Translations under genes and position numbers: made by a program
Part shown: piece after piece, positions 1 through 8,266 of the stretch
Numbering within the stretch: position 1 is the first letter of the stretch
How the letters are laid out: each line of letters starts with the position of its first letter
Notes under the pieces: generated by a model
What the model was told of the DNA's origin: nothing
Databases searched by the model: none
The model's input: the letters and a program-made list of their open reading frames with translations, nothing else
Assembly: GCA_964544065.1 (NCBI GenBank)
Contig: CAZJBA010000003.1
Coordinates: 1,563 to 40,296 of the forward strand
Length of the DNA: 38,734 bases
From: an uncultured Anaerolineales bacterium
GTDB lineage: Bacteria > Chloroflexota > Anaerolineae > Anaerolineales > UBA11858
Direction of reading: 5' to 3'

Positions 1-1151
1 TCGCCGGTGACCGCGTTGATCCGGGTAATCGCGGCCTCGAATGGCTCCACCTCGTGAAGCAGCGCTTCGATCCCGACGATTCCCGCCACGGAAAGGTTTG
101 TCTCGAAGCGCCGCGCCAGCGTGCCCACGTAGTTGCCCTTGGCCGCTTCCAGTTCTTCGGCGGTGATGCCCTGCTGGCGCAGATCGAGCCAACCATCCAG
201 AATCTCGTCCTGGACGCCGGTCTGATCCTCGGCGTCACAGGCCGCGTGGACAGCCAGAAAACCGGCATCTTCGTATACCGATGAGACCGCGTTGAGGTTG
301 TAAACTAAGCCCAGTTCCTGGCGGAGACGGCGATACAAGCGCCCGCTTGCGCCCATGCCTAGGACGAGTTCGATGATCTTCAGCGCACTGCGGTGGGGGT
401 GTTTCAAGCCCACGGTGGGCACGCCCAGCAGCAGGTAGGTTTGCTCGCTTTTCCTGGCGAGATGGCCGCCGCGCGGCTGCCGGATGGGGGCTTCATCGAC
501 GGGCGTTGGGGGCTGCTCCAGGCCGGAGGGAAGATCGGCGAAACTATCTCCGGCGAGTGACATGGCTTCATCCGGAGCGACATCGCCGCAGATGGCCAGC
601 ACGGCGTTGCCACCGACGAATCGTTGTCGATGGAAGCCGCGCACCTGCTCGACGCTGGCGTCCCGCACCCCCGCGGGGGTGCCAATCACCGGGTTGCGGA
701 GCGGATTGTCTTGCCAAAGGTGTTGGATGAAATGGTCGTACAACGCCCCACTGCGGTCATGGGAAGCGCTCATTTCTTGAAGGACAACTAGTTTTTCTTT
801 GCGAAACGTCTCAGGATTGAACGCCGGTCGGATGGCGATGTCGGCCAGGCAAGATAATGCTACGGGAAGGTGTTCGGCCAGGGTGACGGTATGCAAAGAG
901 AGATATTCTCGCGTGGTGTGCGCGTTGATCTCGCCGCCGCGCGCTTCAATCACTGCGAAGATTTCTCCTGCACGTCGATCGGTGCTCCCCTGAAAAAGCA
1001 TGTGCTCTAATAGATGCGCCAGGCCGGGATGTTCCCCGTCGTAACGGCTTCCGGCGCGCAAGAACAACCGGGCTGCGACGGTGCGCGTCCCCGGGCGGGG
1101 GATGGTGATTACACGGAGGCCGTTAAAGATTGTTTCGGGATGAAGTTTCAC
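1..1151 (-). CDS. M16 (pitrilysin/insulinase) family zinc peptidase; C-terminal part lies beyond the left window edge
   Basis: Absent from the ORF track because it runs off the edge. Reverse-strand translation from GTG at 1151 reads MKLHPETIFNGLRVITIPRPGTRTVAARLFLRAGSRYDGEHPGLAHLLEHMLFQGSTDRRAGEIF... It stays open for about 383 codons to position 1. It has the inverted zinc motif HxxEH (HLLEH) and the NGLRV N-terminus typical of M16. Confidence 0.85.
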   Translation of the reverse strand, partial: MKLHPETIFNGLRVITIPRPGTRTVAARLFLRAGSRYDGEHPGLAHLLEHMLFQGSTDRRAGEIFAVIEARGGEINAHTTREYLSLHTVTLAEHLPVALSCLADIAIRPAFNPETFRKEKLVVLQEMSASHDRSGALYDHFIQHLWQDNPLRNPVIGTPAGVRDASVEQVRGFHRQRFVGGNAVLAICGDVAPDEAMSLAGDSFADLPSGLEQPPTPVDEAPIRQPRGGHLARKSEQTYLLLGVPTVGLKHPHRSALKIIELVLGMGASGRLYRRLRQELGLVYNLNAVSSVYEDAGFLAVHAACDAEDQTGVQDEILDGWLDLRQQGITAEELEAAKGNYVGTLARRFETNLSVAGIVGIEALLHEVEPFEAAITRINAVTG

Positions 1152-1167: not shown

Positions 1168-1313
1168 TGAGTTAGTGGATTAGGGATCAGGAATCAGTGG
1201 ATCAGTGGATCAGTGGACCAGGAATCAGTGGGCCAGTGTTCCCAGTTTCCCGATCCCTGATACCTGATACTCTGATTCCTGATTTCCTGCTCCCTGATTC
1301 CCTGATACCTGAC
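1168..1313. repeat. Two opposed arrays of a 7-8 nt unit: about 9 x [T]GGATCAG-like units (1168-1236), then 8 x CTGAT[A/T]CC-like units (1257-1313)
   Basis: Direct reading. ATCAG-type units end at 1190, 1197, 1205, 1213, (1221), 1228, (1236). CTGAT-type units start at 1257, 1264, 1272, 1279, (1287), 1294, 1302, (1309). The two arrays are reverse complements of each other; for example GGAATCAG at 1190-1197 and 1221-1228 matches CTGATTCC at 1294-1301 and 1272-1279. The region fills the whole gap between the stop at 1314 and the M16 start at 1151. Confidence 0.9.
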
Positions 1314-1751
1314 TTACAACAACCCAGACTTACTAATCCTCTCATCCAGGTCAGTCATCCAATTCTCCAGGTTTTCGGGCTCCATCTCTTTGAGCGCGGC
1401 GATCTCAGCGGGGGTGAGTTGAAAACCAGCCTGCTGCAAAGTCGATTCTGGCGCGGCGAAGAAATTGGTTCGAAAATCCTCGTCGCCGATGAGGCGCTTG
1501 ATCACCTCCTGGATACGATCACTGATCGTCGCTTTGGGGCCGGAGAGTTCGGCCATGGCCAGGTTGCGGATGCGGGTGGCCAATCCCGGCGAGGGTTCGG
1601 CCTGGGCGGTGGCGTCCAGTTTGGCGACAGTTTGGAGCAGCGGGGCCAGCTTCCCTGCCTCGGCAGGGTCGATTTGTTCCCCGGCCAAGAGTCGATCGGT
1701 CAGTTCGGCAAATCGTTCCGCTTTTCGGGCTTGATCGTCTTTTTTGGTCAT
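1314..1751 (-). CDS. Hypothetical 145-aa soluble protein at the position where an anti-sigma factor is expected; its C-terminus resembles NHLP/Nif11-type leader peptides
   Basis: ORF track. ATG at 1751 with AGAGG 8 nt upstream, 55 nt downstream of the ECF sigma gene. No hydrophobic segment and no HxxxCxxC motif. The segment DEDFRTNFFAAPESTLQQAGFQLTPAEIAALKEM resembles the D-x-x-FR...P...L...G..L motif of NHLP leaders, recalled from memory. Confidence 0.7.
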   Translation of the reverse strand: MTKKDDQARKAERFAELTDRLLAGEQIDPAEAGKLAPLLQTVAKLDATAQAEPSPGLATRIRNLAMAELSGPKATISDRIQEVIKRLIGDEDFRTNFFAAPESTLQQAGFQLTPAEIAALKEMEPENLENWMTDLDERISKSGLL

Positions 1752-1806
1752 CTTAGGAACCTCTGTTTACGAACATAGTCTTGTCTACCAATTTGGTCGT
1801 CGAGAA

Positions 1807-2361
1807 TCAGTGAAAAGTAACATCATCTTGCAAGGTCTCGACCTTTTCTTGACAACTCTCGATGGCTCGATAGAAGCGCATCTTGGCGGCAGCGAGACTG
1901 ATATCGAGGTAACCGGCAATCTCTTTGAAGGGGAGGCCATCCGCAATCCGAAGCAGGATGACCTCGCGGTGGCTCTCGGGCAGGGCCCGTAGAGCTTCGC
2001 GGAGGAACATCTGGTCGGCGACGGCGTCAAAGGGGTTTTCCGCTGCCGGTTCGGGGACATCCTCGAGAGGGATCTTTTCGACCGTGCGAGATCGCTTGCG
2101 GTAGAAATCGGCCACCCGGCGTTTGACGATTCGATACACCCATGTAGAGAAGGAGGATCGCCCGCCAAAACTGTCCAGGGAGTGGGCAATCGAGATGAAA
2201 ATCTCCTGGGTGACATCATCGGCCGCATCGCGAGGGACCAGGCTGCAAACCCGTCCGAACACCTTGGGAAAATAATAATCGTAAATTTGACCGAAAGCGG
2301 CCTGTTCTCCCTGTTGAGCCGCTGCGATCAGCGTCTGTTCGTTCTCAAGTTGCCAGGTCAT
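1807..2361 (-). CDS. ECF-type RNA polymerase sigma-70 family factor
   Basis: Region 2 (DAADDVTQEIFISIAHSLDSF...FSTWVYRIVKRRVADFYRK) and region 4 (LPESHREVILLRIADGLPFKEIAGYLDISLAAAKMRFYRA) are recognisable. I prefer ATG 2361 (GGAAGGA 7 nt upstream) over the TTG at 2382. It overlaps the 3' end of the M50 gene by 17 nt. Confidence 0.9.
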   Translation of the reverse strand: MTWQLENEQTLIAAAQQGEQAAFGQIYDYYFPKVFGRVCSLVPRDAADDVTQEIFISIAHSLDSFGGRSSFSTWVYRIVKRRVADFYRKRSRTVEKIPLEDVPEPAAENPFDAVADQMFLREALRALPESHREVILLRIADGLPFKEIAGYLDISLAAAKMRFYRAIESCQEKVETLQDDVTFH

Positions 2362-3853
2362 AAAGATTCCTTCCCAGGGCAAGCAGCGTGGTTCCCACAG
2401 TCAAAGCAGTCCAAATCAGAGCTAGCAGTCCGTAGATTACGTATATTGTATCATCTCGGCGGAATGTTTCACGTTGAGAGAGTTTTTTCCACAGGCCTCG
2501 GCGGATGAATTTGAACGCCCGGCCCCGCAGCATGGGCATCTCCAGCCAGTCCATCAGCAGGTAGTAGCCATCCAGGCGAAGCAAGGGATTGAGGTTGATC
2601 AAAGCGAGCAGCAGATTGACAAACGCAAATTGAAACGCCAGCCCGGCGACCGGTTGGAGCGGGAGAAGCAGCGCGATCAGGCTGGCCAATCCGGCCAGAA
2701 AAAAGCTTGAGTAGGGCCCGGCCCAGGAGACCAGCAGGCGCGGGCGGCGCGGTTCCATCCAGATGTCGGTGGTGTCGACGAAAAAAGCGGGCATGCCCCA
2801 ATAGAACAGAAACCCGGCCCGGCGCACCTCCCGGCCAAAGTGTTTGCAAGTCAGTGCATGAGCGGATTCGTGTAGCAGGATGGCGAAGAATTGACTGACA
2901 TACAACCCCAGCAATCCCATCGACAGGCCACCGATCCCCGCGCTGAGAATCGAAGAACCGCCGTCGAGGAGCAAGATTCCAAAGCCGACCAGTCCGGCCA
3001 GGGCGATCAGGAAGATCAAAATCTGAGCCGGGAGCGTGAAGGCCAGAAAGCCGCCCGCCCGATAGAGGCTGGCGACAAACGAATCGATCCCCTCGAACGA
3101 AAAAGTGGTTTGGCGGAAGGTTTGGAGTAATTTTGCTCCTGCCCGTTTGAACCGGCCTTGGCCCAGGCTTTGGGCCGTGTGCTCGTACAGGTCCCTGTGC
3201 TCGCCAACCAGGAAACCCTTTTCTTGCAATTGCTCCAGAAAAGTGAGCAATTGCTCCACGGCCAGGGATTGGTAGCGGGCAAAATAGGCAACCGCGATAT
3301 CCTCGACGGAGTGCTCGCCGTCCATCAGGTTCCACAGGAAAACCTGCTCCTCGCTGAGGCGCAGATACGTTCCCAGGCGGGTGTTCTTAAGGATGTAATA
3401 CGATTGGCCGCCGCCGGTTGACAGCGGCTTCAGAGCCCAACCCAGGCGGCGGGTGGGCTTGCGTTGAGTCAGGGCACCGGATTGGGCTGCGGCGTGCCAC
3501 AAGCTGCTCTCGGTTGGGGCCAAGACGAGAGTCTCATCATCGAGTTGGTCCCACAGGCCCAGGGCTTGGCGCTGCGGCAACCTCGCCACTTGAAGTGCAT
3601 GCCACAAATCGTGTTCCGGTCGGATGATCAAGGTTTCATCGTTCAGTTCGGCCCAGATGTCGCCCCCTTGCTCGGTGATGACCAGCGTTTCGCCCCCAAC
3701 CTGTTCCCACAAACCGCCGGGACGCTCGCCCAGCGCCGTCCAGAGATGCAGGTCATCGTGATCCAGAACCCGGACCGGCTCCCGAACGACCTGCCGCCAG
3801 ATTCCACCGGCCTCACCCTGGCCGGATACCCGCGCCCAGACGCCTTTGTCCAC
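2345..3853 (-). CDS. M50 (site-2 protease) family membrane metalloprotease with an N-terminal Trp-repeat region and a PqqD/RRE-like domain
   Basis: HExxH (LLHESAHAL, nt 2858-2872). NLNPLLRLDGYY motif in a later TM helix. Several hydrophobic helices. Residues ~150-216 (SYYILKNTRLGTYLRLSEEQVFLWNLMDGEHSVEDIAVAYFARYQSLAVEQLLTFLEQLQEKGFL) look like a PqqD-family domain. GTG start 2 nt after the FHA gene stop. Confidence 0.85.
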   Translation of the reverse strand: MDKGVWARVSGQGEAGGIWRQVVREPVRVLDHDDLHLWTALGERPGGLWEQVGGETLVITEQGGDIWAELNDETLIIRPEHDLWHALQVARLPQRQALGLWDQLDDETLVLAPTESSLWHAAAQSGALTQRKPTRRLGWALKPLSTGGGQSYYILKNTRLGTYLRLSEEQVFLWNLMDGEHSVEDIAVAYFARYQSLAVEQLLTFLEQLQEKGFLVGEHRDLYEHTAQSLGQGRFKRAGAKLLQTFRQTTFSFEGIDSFVASLYRAGGFLAFTLPAQILIFLIALAGLVGFGILLLDGGSSILSAGIGGLSMGLLGLYVSQFFAILLHESAHALTCKHFGREVRRAGFLFYWGMPAFFVDTTDIWMEPRRPRLLVSWAGPYSSFFLAGLASLIALLLPLQPVAGLAFQFAFVNLLLALINLNPLLRLDGYYLLMDWLEMPMLRGRAFKFIRRGLWKKLSQRETFRRDDTIYVIYGLLALIWTALTVGTTLLALGRNLYDLAT

Positions 3854-3855
3854 GC

Positions 3856-4527
3856 TCAGTCCCTACCCTGGCAAAAGACCAAAACACCATGGCCGAAAAC
3901 GAGTTCGTCGCCGTCGGTCAGCTTGTGCGTCACACTGAGTCGCTCCCCGTTGACGAGGGTGCCGTTGGCGCTGCCCAGATCGCTGAGCAGATAGCCCTTC
4001 CCTTGGCGGACGATCTCGGCATGGGGGCGGGAAACAGCCCGGTCTTGCAGGTTGATGTCCCACTTGTCGCCGCGTCCGGCCCGCCCGACGACCGTTTTCG
4101 CCTTGACCAGATCGAAGCGCGTGCCCCGGCCTGGCCCTGTGCGGATTTCCAGATACGGATGGGCGGCCAGATTGGGGACGATTTTTGTGGGACGGGATTC
4201 CGCCGGGGGCGCGGAGTCCTCTTCCGAGGGAGTCTGAACCTCGAAGCGGATGGTCACCGGCCCGATTTGAAGTTGATCCCCCTGGTGAAGCGGGCGCGTG
4301 CTCTCCAGCCGTTCGCCGTTGAGCAGGGTGCCGTTGTAGCTGCCCAAATCCGAAATTAGAAACGCGTCCCCGTCAAAATAGATCTCCGCATGTTGGCGGG
4401 AGACGCGCTCATCGAGAATGGTGATGTCACAATCCCTGCTCCGCCCAATCACAAAGAGGTCTTTTTCGAGGGAAAGACGATGTTCCTGGCCAGGCGGAAA
4501 TTGCCAGTGGAGGTGAGCGGCTGGCAT
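3856..4527 (-). CDS. Tandem FHA-domain protein (two forkhead-associated domains)
   Basis: Two copies of the FHA signature: FVIGRSRDCDITILDERVSRQHAEIYFDGDAFLISDLGSYNGTLLNGERL and VVGRAGRGDKWDINLQDRAVSRPHAEIVRQGKGYLLSDLGSANGTLVNGERL. The ATG at 4527 overlaps the TGA of the upstream gene (TGATG). Confidence 0.9.
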   Translation of the reverse strand: MPAAHLHWQFPPGQEHRLSLEKDLFVIGRSRDCDITILDERVSRQHAEIYFDGDAFLISDLGSYNGTLLNGERLESTRPLHQGDQLQIGPVTIRFEVQTPSEEDSAPPAESRPTKIVPNLAAHPYLEIRTGPGRGTRFDLVKAKTVVGRAGRGDKWDINLQDRAVSRPHAEIVRQGKGYLLSDLGSANGTLVNGERLSVTHKLTDGDELVFGHGVLVFCQGRD

Positions 4528-4754
4528 CAGTCCAGGTAAGGTGTTTCCAACGGTTCGGGCTGCGGCTTACAAATCCCGCAAAAGATGGCATCGGCGACGA
4601 CCAGCGACTTGAGCACTTGTTTGCTGGTGCTGGGGTACACGCTGACGATGTAGTTCATCGTTTGGGCGTGTTCTTTGCACACACCGCGGCCGCAAAAGCG
4701 GCAAACGGCATCAGCGGTCTGGCTGCACTTCCAACAGTTCATCATGCGTTCCAT
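4527..4754 (-). CDS. Small Cys-rich zinc-ribbon protein (DUF2180-like), 75 aa
   Basis: I use the internal ATG at 4754 of ORF 4527..4952 (MERMMNCWKCSQTADAVCRFCGRGVCKEHA...FCGICKPQPEP). The longer N-terminus would overlap the cytochrome c gene and is Arg-rich junk. It has CxxC...CxxC...C..H...CxxC spacing. The family call is from memory. Confidence 0.55.
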   Translation of the reverse strand: MERMMNCWKCSQTADAVCRFCGRGVCKEHAQTMNYIVSVYPSTSKQVLKSLVVADAIFCGICKPQPEPLETPYLD

Positions 4755-4756
4755 TT

Positions 4757-5215
4757 CTATTCCGGTTCGGATTGAATGAAGGCCACCAAGGCTTCGATCT
4801 CTTCGGTGGAGAGTTTGTCTTCGAAAGATGGCATGCCGCCGCGGCCACTGGTGATGGTATCGATGTAAACGGAAGCTTCTTCGGTTAAGGTGTCTGGCAA
4901 CAGGGCCGGGCCGCGCCCGCCGGTACGATTGGTTCCATGGCATTTGGCGCAATTCTGCTGGAACAATTCTTCGGCTGCCACCGCTTCAGCCGGAGCTTCT
5001 TCTTCGGCGGTAGGCTCTACTTCCTCTTCTGTGGGTTCGGCTTCTTCTTCGCTGGTTTCTTCAACGGGTTCCTCCGTCGGCGCGGCGGTAGGTTCGGCTT
5101 CTTCCTCCACAGCGGGCTGCTCGGCAGGCGTTTCGGCCTCGCCACCTGCACAGGCTACGAGCATAAAACTCAAGGTGACGAGAAGAACGATCCAAATCAG
5201 CTTTTTACGAAACAT
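4757..5215 (-). CDS. Lipoprotein-type monohaem c-type cytochrome with an E/P/T/A-rich linker
   Basis: ATG 5215 with GGAGG 5 nt upstream. Signal peptide plus lipobox (MFRKKLIWIVLLVTLSFMLVAC). CxxCH haem motif (CAKCHG). Distal Met region (GGMPSF). Confidence 0.85.
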   Translation of the reverse strand: MFRKKLIWIVLLVTLSFMLVACAGGEAETPAEQPAVEEEAEPTAAPTEEPVEETSEEEAEPTEEEVEPTAEEEAPAEAVAAEELFQQNCAKCHGTNRTGGRGPALLPDTLTEEASVYIDTITSGRGGMPSFEDKLSTEEIEALVAFIQSEPE

Positions 5216-5253
5216 GATTACCTCCAAAACGGATAAGTTTAATTATAAACGAT

Positions 5254-6459
5254 TCAGCCGGTTATCAATCTACCTCCTTGAATCTGCCAGGTGGTCGCGT
5301 CTTGGACGAATCCCGGAGAGAAGAGATCCAGGTCGGTGGTGGTCAGCAGCACCTGTTCGATATCGTTGAGACGTGCGAGCAGGTCTACCCGACGCTGATT
5401 GTCCAACTCGGCAAGGACCTCATCCAGCAAGAGCACGGGCCAGAAGCCGGATTTTTCCTTGATCCAGTTGACTTCGGCAATTTTGAGAGCCAGCAACGTC
5501 GTCCGGATTTGGCCGCGTGAACCATAGGTGCCCAGGTCGATGCCGTTGCCCAAAAAATGGAGTTCATCGCGGTGAGGGCCAATCGTGGTCACGCCGCGGC
5601 GAATCTCTTCTTGTCGCAGTTCAATCAAAGCCTGCCGGAACCCCTCGGCAATCTCTTCCCGCGAGAAATTAGCGCGGTCGATGGGAGCATCCAGGGGCAG
5701 GGCGATTTGATTCTTGGGAGGTTGGTAAGGGTCATAAGCGGGACGATAGATCAGGCGAAGCACTTCTTCGCCGCGGGTAAGTTCGTGATGAACCAGGGCG
5801 GCCTGATGTTCGAGTTCTCGGATGGCGTGGATGCGCGCCGCGATGATCTTGGCTCCGGCCTGGGCGATTTGTTCATCCCAATAATCGAGTTGGCCCGGGT
5901 CGCCCCCTTGTTCGGCCAACATTTTGAGCAGCGCGTTGCGCTGGCTCGTCGCTTTATCATAGGCGGACAACGCCGCGGTATAAGGGGCGTCAATCTGTGA
6001 AATGGCCAAGTCAAGATAACGGCGCCGCTCTGAGGGCGACCCGTCGATGATGCTCAGCATCCGGGGCAGGAAAAGCACGGCATTGAAATGACCGATGGAC
6101 TCATTGATCGTGGTTTGAACATCATCCAGAAGCACTTCTTTCCGCACGCGGGTGGAATTACCTCTGCCGTTGGATTGCTGAATGATGCGCGTCTCCAAGC
6201 GATGCGACTTGTCCCCGCGCTGGTAGTCGGCCATAATCCGCCCGACAGCCAAGGGTTCGCGTCTGGCAATAAAATTAAGCATCTCACGGTTGTGGCTGGC
6301 TTGAAACGACGTAAACGTCGAAATGAAATAAATTGATTCTAGTAAACTGGTTTTCCCTTGAGCATTATCCCCAACAATCAAGAGAACGCCGGCAGGTACA
6401 TCGACGTCCAGGCGAGTGAAATTGCGAAAATTGGTCAGCGATAGGTGAGATAATTGCAT
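5254..6459 (-). CDS. recF: DNA replication and repair protein RecF
   Basis: N-terminus MQLSHLSLTNFRNFTRLDVDVPAGVLLIVGDNAQGKTSLLESIYF (Walker A). C-terminal LLLDEVLAELD signature. Length 401 aa. Confidence 0.95.
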   Translation of the reverse strand: MQLSHLSLTNFRNFTRLDVDVPAGVLLIVGDNAQGKTSLLESIYFISTFTSFQASHNREMLNFIARREPLAVGRIMADYQRGDKSHRLETRIIQQSNGRGNSTRVRKEVLLDDVQTTINESIGHFNAVLFLPRMLSIIDGSPSERRRYLDLAISQIDAPYTAALSAYDKATSQRNALLKMLAEQGGDPGQLDYWDEQIAQAGAKIIAARIHAIRELEHQAALVHHELTRGEEVLRLIYRPAYDPYQPPKNQIALPLDAPIDRANFSREEIAEGFRQALIELRQEEIRRGVTTIGPHRDELHFLGNGIDLGTYGSRGQIRTTLLALKIAEVNWIKEKSGFWPVLLLDEVLAELDNQRRVDLLARLNDIEQVLLTTTDLDLFSPGFVQDATTWQIQGGRLITG

Positions 6460-6589: not shown

Positions 6590-8266
6590 CTAATTGAAAT
6601 CTGGTCTGTGGCCGGAGCTTTTTCCATTCTGGGCTTGTTCGTGATAGATGCTTAACCACTCCGCCATTTGATCGCGTTCCCTTTGAGCTTTTTGTTCTTC
6701 GACGGTTTGCTGGCGACTTTGAAAACGTTGGAACACTTCTTGTTGTACCATGGTGGGATTGTACACATTGTCGAAGGTGAATTCTGCTTCACCGACATTA
6801 ATCAACACGGTGCCGTAGTTGAGCAGCTTTTGGATAAAATTTTGTTCAACGCTGGTGTTGAGCACCCGTTCCAGAGGCGCCGATTGTGTCCTTTCCCTGC
6901 CGAGCGGTTTGCGGTCGATATCAAAAATCTTCTTATCGGTGACTTTGTAAATATCGTTACTCCAGTCTATCAGATGGTAAAGCCACCAAGGCGACGAAAG
7001 CAGCAGGAAGATTCCCATAGCGGCGAGGGGCATAAGGGCTTTCTGGAGCGGATTTTCTCCAGATGCATAAGCCAATCCCACTTGCAAGACGAGATAGCCG
7101 GACAATCCCAAGAAGATCACAACAATGAGCCAGATTTCTCGCAACAAGATAAACCAATGTTTACGGTAGATTACGTCTCCTTCTTCTTCGATATGAGTTT
7201 TGAGCAAGTTGGAAAACCATTTGGTCAACTTGGAATTCTTTTTTGTAGGTTGGCTTGAGTCCTTGCTTTGCTGTTCAACTTCTGGGGGTTGTTGAAGGCC
7301 AATTACGGTGCGAATCGTCTCGACTCGTTTTTGATGAGCTTCTTCCTCAGCATATAGCTCTAAGCGCTGCCAGTACGCGTTGATCATGGCTTTAAACTGT
7401 TCAGGCCTATCGACGTTTTCCATCACAATGTCCCCCTTGAGCGTTCTAACAACGACATCGGCCGACTTCCAAAGCTTTTGAATATAATCCTTGTTGGTGT
7501 CGATGGATATAATTGCGTTCAGAGGAGCTTCGTTGCGACTCTCGAATAGCATAACAATTTTTTCCAACCAGATCACCCGTTTGTTGGTGACAATATAAAA
7601 GTCGTTGCCCCAATCAACCCATTTCCAGATGGCCCAAAAGATGGAAGGGACAGCGATGAGCAAGCCAATCACCTTGAGGAGAATTCCACCGATTTTTCCT
7701 GGGGATGCTGCCAAGAACCCAGAAGCCACGAAGATAGCCCCAATGGCGAAAAGTGTAAGGCTTGGCAGCAGGGAAGATAGCAAGACATAGATATGTTTTT
7801 GTGCAATCATGTGGATGATTTCCCCCTCCTCCATCCAATTGAATTGTTCCTTTCTGGCAATCCGGTAGCTTCGGGCCAAGATTTGTAGATCGTCTTCTAT
7901 TTCCGGGAAATCCAGGAGCATATGCTGGAAATTCTTTTTTTCTAAGACGAGTGCTTTCGCCCCTCCTCGACATACCCCTGTTATTTTGTGCTTATGGTTG
8001 TATAAGAGGCTTTCGTGTCCTAAAATATCCCCTCTTATCAACGTGCCCACATATCTTTTTTCCCGCCCACGGCCGCGCTCTAGCTGGACTTGACCAGATG
8101 TGATAACATAAAAGTGTTCTGCTGAAGTGTCTTCTGAGCAAAGGACTTGTTTATCAACAAACGTTTTAACCTCGAAAAGTTTGGCGAGATCACAACGCTC
8201 GTTTTCGTCGAGGTCTCTAAAATGCGGAATCGTATCGAGATAATTGGCAATTTGATTGACGTCCAT
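6590..8266 (-). CDS. Membrane protein with an N-terminal cyclic-nucleotide-binding domain and two YdbT-like bacterial PH (bPH_2) modules
   Basis: cNMP-binding-like N-terminus (FRDLDENERCDLAKLFEVKTF...GDILGHESLL...AKALVLEKKNF). Two repeats of a TM hairpin followed by W.DW.ND.Y.VT.KR/K.I (WVDWGNDFYIVTNKRVIWLE and LIDWSNDIYKVTDKKIFDID). Confidence 0.8.
   Translation of the reverse strand: MDVNQIANYLDTIPHFRDLDENERCDLAKLFEVKTFVDKQVLCSEDTSAEHFYVITSGQVQLERGRGREKRYVGTLIRGDILGHESLLYNHKHKITGVCRGGAKALVLEKKNFQHMLLDFPEIEDDLQILARSYRIARKEQFNWMEEGEIIHMIAQKHIYVLLSSLLPSLTLFAIGAIFVASGFLAASPGKIGGILLKVIGLLIAVPSIFWAIWKWVDWGNDFYIVTNKRVIWLEKIVMLFESRNEAPLNAIISIDTNKDYIQKLWKSADVVVRTLKGDIVMENVDRPEQFKAMINAYWQRLELYAEEEAHQKRVETIRTVIGLQQPPEVEQQSKDSSQPTKKNSKLTKWFSNLLKTHIEEEGDVIYRKHWFILLREIWLIVVIFLGLSGYLVLQVGLAYASGENPLQKALMPLAAMGIFLLLSSPWWLYHLIDWSNDIYKVTDKKIFDIDRKPLGRERTQSAPLERVLNTSVEQNFIQKLLNYGTVLINVGEAEFTFDNVYNPTMVQQEVFQRFQSRQQTVEEQKAQRERDQMAEWLSIYHEQAQNGKSSGHRPDFN

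Follow-up and report, generated by a model that had tools for sequence, protein, structure and literature searches.

A leader-bearing anti-sigma-type protein beside an FHA-coupled site-2 protease suggests an undescribed proteolytic switch in an Anaerolineales operon

The DNA analysed in this study is a stretch of 38,734 nucleotides from an uncultured Anaerolineales bacterium (assembly GCA_964544065.1, contig CAZJBA010000003.1, positions 1,563 to 40,296), referred to below as the window. An operon on its minus strand encodes a Zn-ribbon protein, a tandem-FHA protein, a site-2 protease (S2P) fused to a PqqD-like domain, an extracytoplasmic function (ECF) sigma factor, a 145-aa protein (p145) and an M16 peptidase. 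The composition of this operon suggests an undescribed proteolytic way of switching on genes, which is probably gated by threonine phosphorylation. Because the N-terminal domain of p145 shares homology and synteny with transmembrane (TM) proteins encoded beside ECF sigma genes, we conclude that p145 is the presumptive anti-sigma factor of this ECF group, with its membrane hairpin replaced by a leader domain known from peptides that are ribosomally synthesised and modified post-translationally (RiPPs). The locus as a whole would be a cytoplasm-facing regulated-proteolysis switch for the ECF sigma factor, built from RiPP-maturation parts and gated by phosphothreonine (pThr) and FHA domains. We give this full reading a probability of about 0.5. 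The features of the locus are listed below; AF2 stands for AlphaFold2 models, and phi for a hydrophobic residue.

4527..4754, minus strand: Zn-ribbon gene, 75 aa from the first ATG (4754), 71 aa from the second ATG (4742)
3856..4527, minus strand: tandem-FHA gene, 223 aa
2345..3853, minus strand: gene of the S2P fused to a PqqD-type RiPP recognition element (RRE), GTG start at 3853, 502 aa
3476..3853, minus strand: protease tail, residues 1-126, predicted to be disordered and cytoplasmic, with three W-x5-E-T-phi-phi-phi motifs
3686-3688, 3632-3634 and 3530-3532, minus strand: tail threonines T56, T74 and T108, candidate pThr ligands of the FHA protein
3209..3451, minus strand: PqqD-like RRE of the protease, residues ~135-215, from Pfam, AF2 and Foldseek
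2858..2872, minus strand: HESAH zinc-binding/catalytic motif, residues 328-332, in predicted TM helix 310-338
2561..2596, minus strand: NLNPLLRLDGYY, the S2P NxxPxxxxDG motif giving the third zinc ligand, residues 420-431
1807..2361, minus strand: ECF sigma gene, 184 aa
1527..1751, minus strand: p145 N-domain, residues 1-75, presumptive anti-sigma domain, three helices in the AF2 model (the p145 gene starts at ATG 1751)
1317..1523, minus strand: p145 Os1348/Franean1_4349 NHLP-type leader domain, residues 77-145, ending in DLDERISKSG and then LL
1174..1312, no strand assigned: repeat hairpin between the p145 and M16 genes
1..1151, minus strand: M16 peptidase gene, GTG start at 1151, running past the left end of the window

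All gene junctions were read directly off the minus-strand sequence of the window. This reading bore out the tight packing described in an earlier note on the same DNA. The TGA of the Zn-ribbon gene overlaps the ATG of the FHA gene (TGATG, 4525-4529), and only 2 nt separate the FHA stop (TGA, 3856-3858) from the GTG of the protease (3853); the coupled tandem-FHA gene of that note was confirmed. The protease gene (stop 2345) overlaps the sigma gene (ATG 2361) by 17 nt. The sigma stop (1807) is followed after 55 nt by the p145 ATG (1751), and the M16 gene, in which the HxxEH motif reads HLLEH, lies beyond the repeat hairpin.

Full-length homologs of the protease number more than 385 and come mainly from Anaerolineae and other Chloroflexota; at least 578 relatives are found among species-representative genomes. 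We surveyed 80 of these at least 578 loci together with loci fetched by exact protein (85 in total, given as L numbers), using jackhmmer profiles of each window protein. The survey gave four groups, which we call sigma-type, precursor-type, trio-only and cNMP-type (cNMP, cyclic nucleotide monophosphate). The sigma-type order of Zn-ribbon, tandem-FHA, protease, sigma, p145 and M16 genes was found in L001/L002, L006, L007, L008, L086, L087 and L088, with proteases 43-98% identical to that of the window. Since the same order recurs in at least seven other distinct loci, the arrangement is not due to chance, and the conservation beyond this genome that the earlier note had proposed to look for was found across Anaerolineae.

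Precursor-type loci (L003, L009, L010) contain the Zn-ribbon, tandem-FHA and protease genes with several short precursors. One of them (L003) also encodes two B12-radical SAM enzymes and a methyltransferase, and represents a bona fide RiPP-like cluster. In cNMP-type loci the Zn-ribbon gene is usually downstream and the precursors upstream, and the protease often has 740-1170 aa. A minimal variant (L037; protease identity 38%) consists of genes for a sigma factor, a 164-aa p145-like protein (p164), a 433-aa RRE-S2P, a 93-aa stand-alone precursor and an M16 peptidase; it has no FHA gene and no protease tail.

The chimeric protein p145 and its sigma factor

The earlier note placed a soluble protein without a TM helix or zinc motif in the anti-sigma position, and composition and hydropathy agree with it. 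p145 contains no Cys and no His, and its maximum 19-residue hydropathy is 0.46. Profile and fold comparisons showed p145 to be a chimera of an anti-sigma-type N-domain and an Os1348/NHLP-type leader domain.

The N-domain was traced by its relatives. Its profile was run against 1.84 billion representative proteins and found at least 554 family representatives. Among the top 150 matches, 137 have two TM segments and 4 have one; 5 are NHLP fusions and 4 are truncated. The small proteins P0165-P0170 (143-155 aa) carry the same domain followed by two TM helices, with profile E-values from 2e-7 to 7e-4 and an hhalign probability of 97%. For four TM-anchored relatives the position on a contig could be determined, and each gene begins 1-4 nt behind an ECF sigma gene or overlaps with it. 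The NCBIfam anti-sigma model NF052375 matched 37 of 60 TM relatives, all below its cut-off (best E 4e-7).

The position of p145 is equally regular. Fusions of N-domain and leader are encoded immediately after the sigma gene in the window and in all eight distinct surveyed loci that have them (L001/L002, L006, L007, L008, L037, L086, L087, L088). p145 lies directly behind the sigma gene in every surveyed sigma-type locus, and its domain is shared with the partners of related sigma factors. The p145-like protein of L037 has the same two domains, with an N-domain 31% identical to that of p145. Full-length homologs of p145 form 38 clusters of 142-163 aa.

The sigma factor itself consists of regions 2 and 4 only (Sigma70_r2, 54 bits; r4_2, 44.6 bits; TIGR02937, 85.3 bits, cut-off 42.9). 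The sigma factors of L089 and L090, which are partners of TM-anchored N-domain homologs, share 43-44% identity with it, and that of L037 shares 39%. A sigma-70-like promoter with an extended -10 box (GTGAAA-16-TACAAT, TG upstream) was observed at 2445-2472 on the minus strand, inside the 3′-end of the protease gene and some 85 nt ahead of the sigma ATG. It was recognised by consensus only, with matches of this kind no more frequent there than in shuffled sequence, and it might give the sigma and p145 genes a transcript of their own.

The leader domain was recognised by family, sequence and fold. Residues 79-140 score 69.4 bits against NF038399 (Os1348 NHLP clan, cut-off 40), and Os1348 (PDB 6lk7) matches the domain in sequence (E 4e-5) and fold (probability 0.94-0.97). 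A PDB sequence search with the p145 profile returned nothing beyond 6lk7. The C-terminus of p145, DLDERISKSGLL, is invariant over most of the p145 family; p145 has only 2-4 residues behind the leader-end motif and ends in SGLL, itself near-invariant; tails of up to 18 residues occur in divergent members of the family. Stand-alone precursors share the leader domain and end in ...LDER(I/L/V)SK(x)G, followed by 3-20 or more residues. In about 30 of the surveyed loci, members of this protease family have genes of the stand-alone kind beside them. We had judged p145 to be without a core peptide; this judgement was softened, as the tails of the stand-alone relatives also run to 3-20 residues. As a RiPP precursor p145 would still be anomalous, with a C-terminal leader domain, SGLL only behind the motif and no modifying enzyme at the locus.

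Other fusions of the leader domain were seen in the survey. The Os1348-type domain is fused N-terminally in a 568-aa protein (L086:7529-9235) and in a 273-aa SAM methyltransferase (L003:8675-9496). Long low-complexity repeat tails are attached to it in L041, L045 and L085; examples are repeats of SAEQLSHMSAQQMA (L041) and of GGEELTGVPAIDR (L045). Its apparent role is that of a general targeting tag. Some sigma-type loci encode a second type of leader-bearing protein (L008:9636-10058, 140 aa; L006:9644-10468, minus strand) with a conserved C-terminal segment, VxAVWRDLNPGGLxYxLxxKIPxKxL, of which the window has no copy. It may be this protein that is actually processed, or it may compete with p145.

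The protease, its threonine tail and the tandem-FHA protein

The protease was described in the earlier note as an S2P with a large N-terminus that carries Trp repeats and a PqqD-like domain, and this architecture was verified. PqqD (PF05402) matches residues 154-215 with 29.3 bits against a gathering score of 23.4. In the AF2 model, three strands (139-166) and three helices (168-211) form a winged-helix fold ahead of the TM core, and the domain was assigned to the RREs by this fold and by the Pfam score. The top Foldseek matches of the region are TbiB1 (probability 1.0, TM-score 0.67-0.72) and 6jx3, lasso-peptide B1 proteins that were solved with bound leader.

The catalytic part was assigned by motifs and fold. 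H328 and H332 of the HESAH motif are invariant and E329 is at least 90% conserved across homologs; the stretch from N420 to Y430, with NLNPLLRLDG at residues 420-429, does not vary among 17 aligned homologs (39-58% identity). Because HExxH and NLNPLLxLDGYY are conserved across these 17 homologs, the protease is by its motifs a genuine S2P-type enzyme. The best S2P fold found by Foldseek is SpoIVFB bound to pro-sigmaK (PDB 8vjl; probability 0.99). Peptidase_M50 (PF02163) scores 24.8 bits, slightly under its gathering score of 27.2, and 38.7 bits on the L037 homolog. The family assignments of the earlier note stand for PqqD, FHA, ECF sigma and NHLP, with PqqD, ECF sigma and NHLP above their cut-offs; the M50 match falls short of its gathering score, but the assignment is supported by the S2P motifs and the SpoIVFB fold. 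The best NCBIfam match is the daptide intramembrane metalloprotease (daptide_HExxH, NF041824; E 1e-47), at 163 bits against an equivalog cut-off of 300.

The first 126 residues of the protease form a tail with a pLDDT (AF2 confidence score) of about 30. Its repeats follow the consensus phi-W-x-(E/D)-phi-x-(D/E)-E-T-L-phi-(L/I). T56, T74 and T108 and five Trp are invariant among the 17 aligned sequences. In a wider set of 109 homologs, the tail has three copies of the motif in 72, two in 28 and four in 9. The residue between W-x5-[ED] and the three hydrophobic residues is Thr in 291 of 291 copies and never Ser or an acidic residue, against a background of 6.3% Thr and 5.0% Ser in the tail region. 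Leu or Ile occupies position +3 from the motif Thr.

PF00498 finds two domains in the tandem-FHA protein, with 148.7 bits in all. Each of them has retained GR, SRxH (SRQH/SRPH) and NGT, which supply the Arg, Ser, His and Asn of the pThr pocket. FHA domains are reported (Durocher et al. 2000) to require a pThr ligand and to sense position +3, where Ile or Leu is frequent. A tandem-FHA gene lies immediately upstream of the protease gene in 32 of the 33 surveyed loci with tailed proteases, and the contig comes to an end in the other locus. Of the 51 tail-less proteases, not one has an FHA gene within 1.5 kb upstream. From these patterns we infer that the protease is gated through pThr and FHA binding. 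Hanks kinase genes stand directly beside the module in L009, L028 and L087, though a kinase does not regularly belong to it.

A sister clade of the protease (L033, L036, L073 and about 35 other loci, e.g., L033:4108-7533) has 740-1170 aa and extra TM segments. These proteases end in two cNMP-binding domains (Pfam, 154-166 bits) and have neither the N-terminal tail nor an FHA gene. Judged by these domains, such a protein would be a cyclic-nucleotide-gated, leader-recognising intramembrane protease. Since cNMP-binding domains stand here in place of FHA protein and tail, the sister clade argues that the protease family may be signal-gated in general.

Proposed mechanism, alternatives and related systems

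We propose the following course of events. The N-domain of p145 would hold the sigma factor inactive. The RRE of the adjacent S2P would bind the leader domain of p145, as the RiPP paradigm and the co-occurrence of the two suggest, and this binding would bring the soluble anti-sigma factor to the membrane protease without a site-1 cut. The S2P could then cut at or near the leader-end motif (DLDERISKSG|LL) or elsewhere, and M16 and/or cytoplasmic proteases would destroy the remnant, so that the sigma factor is freed. An unlinked Hanks kinase may phosphorylate the three invariant tail threonines, and binding of the tandem-FHA protein would gate the access or activity of the S2P. In the sister clades the same protease would be switched by two fused cNMP-binding domains instead of FHA gating.

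The earlier note left it open whether the module controls the sigma factor, processes an NHLP-like peptide, or both. These possibilities merge here, with the NHLP-like protein itself as the presumptive anti-sigma factor; binding and cleavage are proposals. The phosphorylation-gated module of that note is supported by the co-occurrence of the FHA gene with the invariant-Thr tail and by the conserved arrangement; the kinase would have to come from outside the window, and phosphorylation is a proposal.

Several points weigh against the proposed switch. The contacts of sigma with p145, of RRE with leader and of FHA protein with tail are all ones that we infer by computation. No curated anti-sigma model of Pfam or NCBIfam matches the p145 N-domain above threshold, and the N-domain alone also falls into no family there. 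The AF2 model of p145 is moderately confident (pLDDT 66.6), and a Foldseek search with it returned Os1348/RiPP-precursor folds for the C-domain only and no anti-sigma structure for the low-pLDDT N-domain. Cleavage is the weakest step, because p145 has no hydrophobic helix and only 2-4 residues beyond the leader-end motif; S2Ps usually cut hydrophobic helices.

The survey adds further points of this kind. The trio-only loci (L004, L012-L032), with Zn-ribbon, tandem-FHA and protease genes, form a large clade in which no sigma or leader-bearing gene lies within 8 kb, so that the protease has substrates of another kind. The genes downstream of the trio vary and none is conserved, so that no substrate can be proposed for this clade. 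The association of FHA gene and tail may stem from one ancestral event. No kinase or phosphatase was found in the 38.7-kb window, where a Hanks kinase was sought by motif and jackhmmer, and Pfam scans of ten further large window ORFs gave housekeeping genes only and no kinase. A shared ECF-type promoter was sought upstream of the operons, and only sigma-70-like boxes were found (TTGACC-N17-TATACT in L001, L007 and L008; TATAAT before the cytochrome c gene that precedes the operon in the window), so the operon does not look ECF-autoregulated. Because these upstream promoters are sigma-70-like, basal expression looks constitutive.

Three other explanations were considered. In the first, which we regard as unlikely, p145 is not proteolysed at all. 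The RRE would hold anti-sigma and sigma factor at the membrane, and release would come through competing precursors or the N-terminal motifs of the protease, modulated by FHA and pThr. This would suit the short stretch behind the leader-end motif of p145. Competitors could be supplied by the extra leader-bearing genes of some loci (L008, 140 aa; L006; L086, 568 aa), and the W-x5-ETLxL motifs could act as pseudo-leaders. However, HExxH and NxxPxxxxDG are strictly conserved in the sigma-type clade, and a gene for an active M16 peptidase always stands beside the sigma-p145 pair, which fits a degradative pathway.

In the second explanation, the locus is conserved but its two halves are unlinked, with the Zn-ribbon/FHA/S2P trio acting on another substrate and the sigma/p145/M16 genes forming an independent inserted cassette. 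The many loci in which the trio stands alone are in line with it, as is the L037 protease, which does without FHA gene and tail. Yet in our survey the cassette was found only beside this protease family, and there in two protease architectures; the C-domain of p145 is the same leader that flanks the family elsewhere, and the protease and sigma genes of the window overlap. We consider this explanation improbable.

An ordinary RiPP cluster, in which p145 would be a long-leader precursor, the RRE-S2P and M16 its leader peptidases and the sigma factor a pathway regulator, appears very improbable: although NCBI names p145 homologs 'Franean1_4349 family RiPP', L003 and L009 are true RiPP-like clusters that encode several short precursors (such related loci also contain B12-radical SAM enzymes and a methyltransferase), stand-alone leader proteins are also short-tailed and an RRE-S2P is the leader peptidase of daptides, the window locus has no modification enzyme, p145 ends in a near-invariant SGLL, its first 75 residues are homologous to TM proteins encoded after sigma genes rather than to leaders, and the fusion gene keeps its place behind the sigma gene throughout.

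The proposed switch was compared with described systems. In classical regulated intramembrane proteolysis (RIP) of ECF anti-sigma factors, the known examples are RseA/DegS/RseP and RsiW/PrsW/RasP. The window resembles them in combining genes for an S2P-family protease, an ECF sigma factor and a presumptive anti-sigma factor, with sigma release by proteolysis as the expected outcome. In contrast to classical RIP, the anti-sigma factor is soluble, there is no site-1 protease and no PDZ domain, and recognition would take place between RRE and leader on the cytoplasmic side. No DegS/PrsW-like gene and no single-pass membrane anti-sigma factor was found at the window locus, which places it outside classical RIP. 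SpoIVFB, which is regulated by BofA/SpoIVFA and a CBS domain, is closer in some respects: it is an S2P that acts on a sigma-related substrate (pro-sigmaK) without a site-1 cut and has a cytoplasmic regulatory domain and small partners. Unlike here, SpoIVFB trims the pro-sequence of the sigma factor itself. The window encodes a normal 184-aa ECF sigma factor, and the target would be a separate chimera of anti-sigma domain and leader.

In M. tuberculosis, RseA is phosphorylated by PknB and degraded by ClpC1P2, and FHA adaptors of the FhaA/FipA type are known. Such actinobacterial systems share with the window the tie between Ser/Thr phosphorylation and the fate of an anti-sigma factor, and FHA domains that read pThr-x-x-(I/L) on membrane proteins; the candidate phospho-sites of the window are on the protease and not on the anti-sigma factor. 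ECF sigma/anti-sigma pairs also occur in lantibiotic clusters (MibX/MibW, PspX/PspW), and a PqqD protein is paired with the M16 peptidase PqqF in the biosynthesis of PQQ (pyrroloquinoline quinone). These cases resemble the window in linking an ECF sigma factor to RiPP genes and an RRE protein to an M16 peptidase. The anti-sigma factors MibW and PspW, unlike p145, are ordinary membrane proteins without a fused leader, and no S2P is known to take part.

The closest relative of the protease by architecture is the daptide leader peptidase MpaP, an RRE-S2P fusion that removes leaders (PMC10036551). Both have a PqqD-like RRE followed by a HExxH intramembrane metalloprotease, and both are encoded near proteins with a recognisable leader. 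The window protease differs in its score well below the daptide cut-off (163 vs. 300 bits), in its extra 126-residue Thr-motif tail and in its tandem-FHA and Zn-ribbon partners. The leader belongs to the Os1348/NHLP family and not to the ELExMEAP type, and an anti-sigma-type domain is joined to the substrate-like protein. Neither MpaB/C/D/M-like genes nor precursors of the ELExMEAP type were found at the window locus.

Os1348 is a precursor-like protein of a Pseudomonas RiPP-like cluster (PMC7726476), and the LigA-like group of helical folds in ECOD includes Frankia_peptide, NHLP and Nif11 (PMC12353581). The C-domain of p145 is a member of the Os1348/Franean1_4349 family (PF14407, NF038399) by profile, by its sequence match to 6lk7 and by fold. 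In p145, unlike Os1348, this domain is C-terminal to a 75-residue anti-sigma-type domain and has 4 residues after it. The Os1348 cluster contains GNAT, HExxH and SagB-type enzymes and not an S2P, an FHA protein or a sigma factor.

The earlier note did not recognise the module as a described system. The RRE-S2P fusion is known from daptides; the anti-sigma-leader fusion and the FHA-coupled RRE-S2P appear to be previously undescribed. Full-text searches of open-access papers gave no account of an anti-sigma factor joined to a leader of the NHLP or RiPP type or of an RRE-S2P coupled to FHA, although this absence is not proof.

More broadly, the leader-RRE recognition of RiPP pathways may have been co-opted for signalling: the anti-sigma factor would have swapped its membrane anchor for a leader, and an S2P switched by pThr/FHA or by cyclic nucleotides would destroy or sequester it from the cytoplasmic side, without a site-1 cut. 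We put this forward tentatively, at slightly less than even odds. If these readings are right, an S2P could control a sigma factor through a soluble anti-sigma factor recruited by an RRE, bypassing the site-1 cleavage that defines classical RIP. This would be a new route of sigma activation and the first regulatory, non-biosynthetic RRE-leader pair, and RiPP leader and RRE would be a portable protein-protein targeting pair outside natural-product biosynthesis. The tandem-FHA protein would have concrete, testable pThr ligands on a bacterial membrane protease. The proteins of these loci named 'Franean1_4349 family RiPP' or 'Os1348 family NHLP clan protein' by NCBI would have to be re-annotated as anti-sigma factors. 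The module occurs widely in Anaerolineae and, with five genes, is small enough for reconstitution in E. coli.

Partner genes, the hairpin and neighbouring genes

The Zn-ribbon protein is an obligate and the most widespread partner of the protease, with 52 matches in the 85 surveyed loci and the window, beside FHA-type and cNMP-type proteases alike. Its gene is upstream of FHA-type proteases and usually downstream of cNMP-type proteases. The ligand pattern is C-x2-C...C-x2-CGR-x2-C-x2-H...CG-x-C-P. C7, C18, C21, C26, H29, C59 and C62 are at least 90% conserved among 52 homologs with a median length of 70 aa, and the 71-aa product from the second ATG is the version annotated in the 98% identical relative L088. 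Pfam gave weak matches only (DUF2180, C5HCH). The protein is probably a subunit or regulator of the protease.

In every sigma-type locus the M16 gene comes first or second behind p145; it likewise follows the p145-like gene in L037 and is found in a few precursor loci. Peptidase_M16 and M16_C were annotated in L001, L086, L087 and L088, and M16 also in L037, L033, L055 and L058. By analogy with PqqF, the M16 peptidase may degrade leader or anti-sigma fragments. A 440-aa gene after the M16 gene of L088 was considered as a second M16 subunit and rejected.

The hairpin between p145 and M16 has an RNA dG of -69.1 kcal/mol and a z-score of -4.9. It is built of an array of ~8-nt (7-8-nt) units (AGTGGATC / GGAATCAG) followed by its reverse complement, with imperfections, and the window has no copy of the repeat unit outside the hairpin. 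The hairpin could serve as a terminator or attenuator, or it could stabilise mRNA, and so set the expression of M16 apart from that of the upstream genes.

Upstream of the operon, a lipoprotein-like c-type cytochrome gene (4757-5215, minus strand; CxxCH; Cytochrome_CBB3, 63.6 bits) ends with its TAG (4757-4759) 2 nt ahead of the first Zn-ribbon ATG. It sits close behind recF and has the TATAAT box upstream. The gene is shared with L088 and absent in L001, L086 and L087; it is therefore probably a lineage-specific passenger in the transcript.

In L088, about 8 kb of extra genes lie between recF and the cytochrome c gene (L088:476-8509), including genes for a single-FHA protein, a 1005-aa LysM protein and four proteins that match no Pfam family. 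In the window recF directly adjoins the cytochrome c gene (5227-5254), which points to an insertion/deletion polymorphism beside the module. Just upstream of recF, a 558-aa membrane protein (6590-8266, minus strand) has an N-terminal cNMP-binding domain and two bacterial PH domains (bPH_2/bPH_3), with no visible relation to the module.

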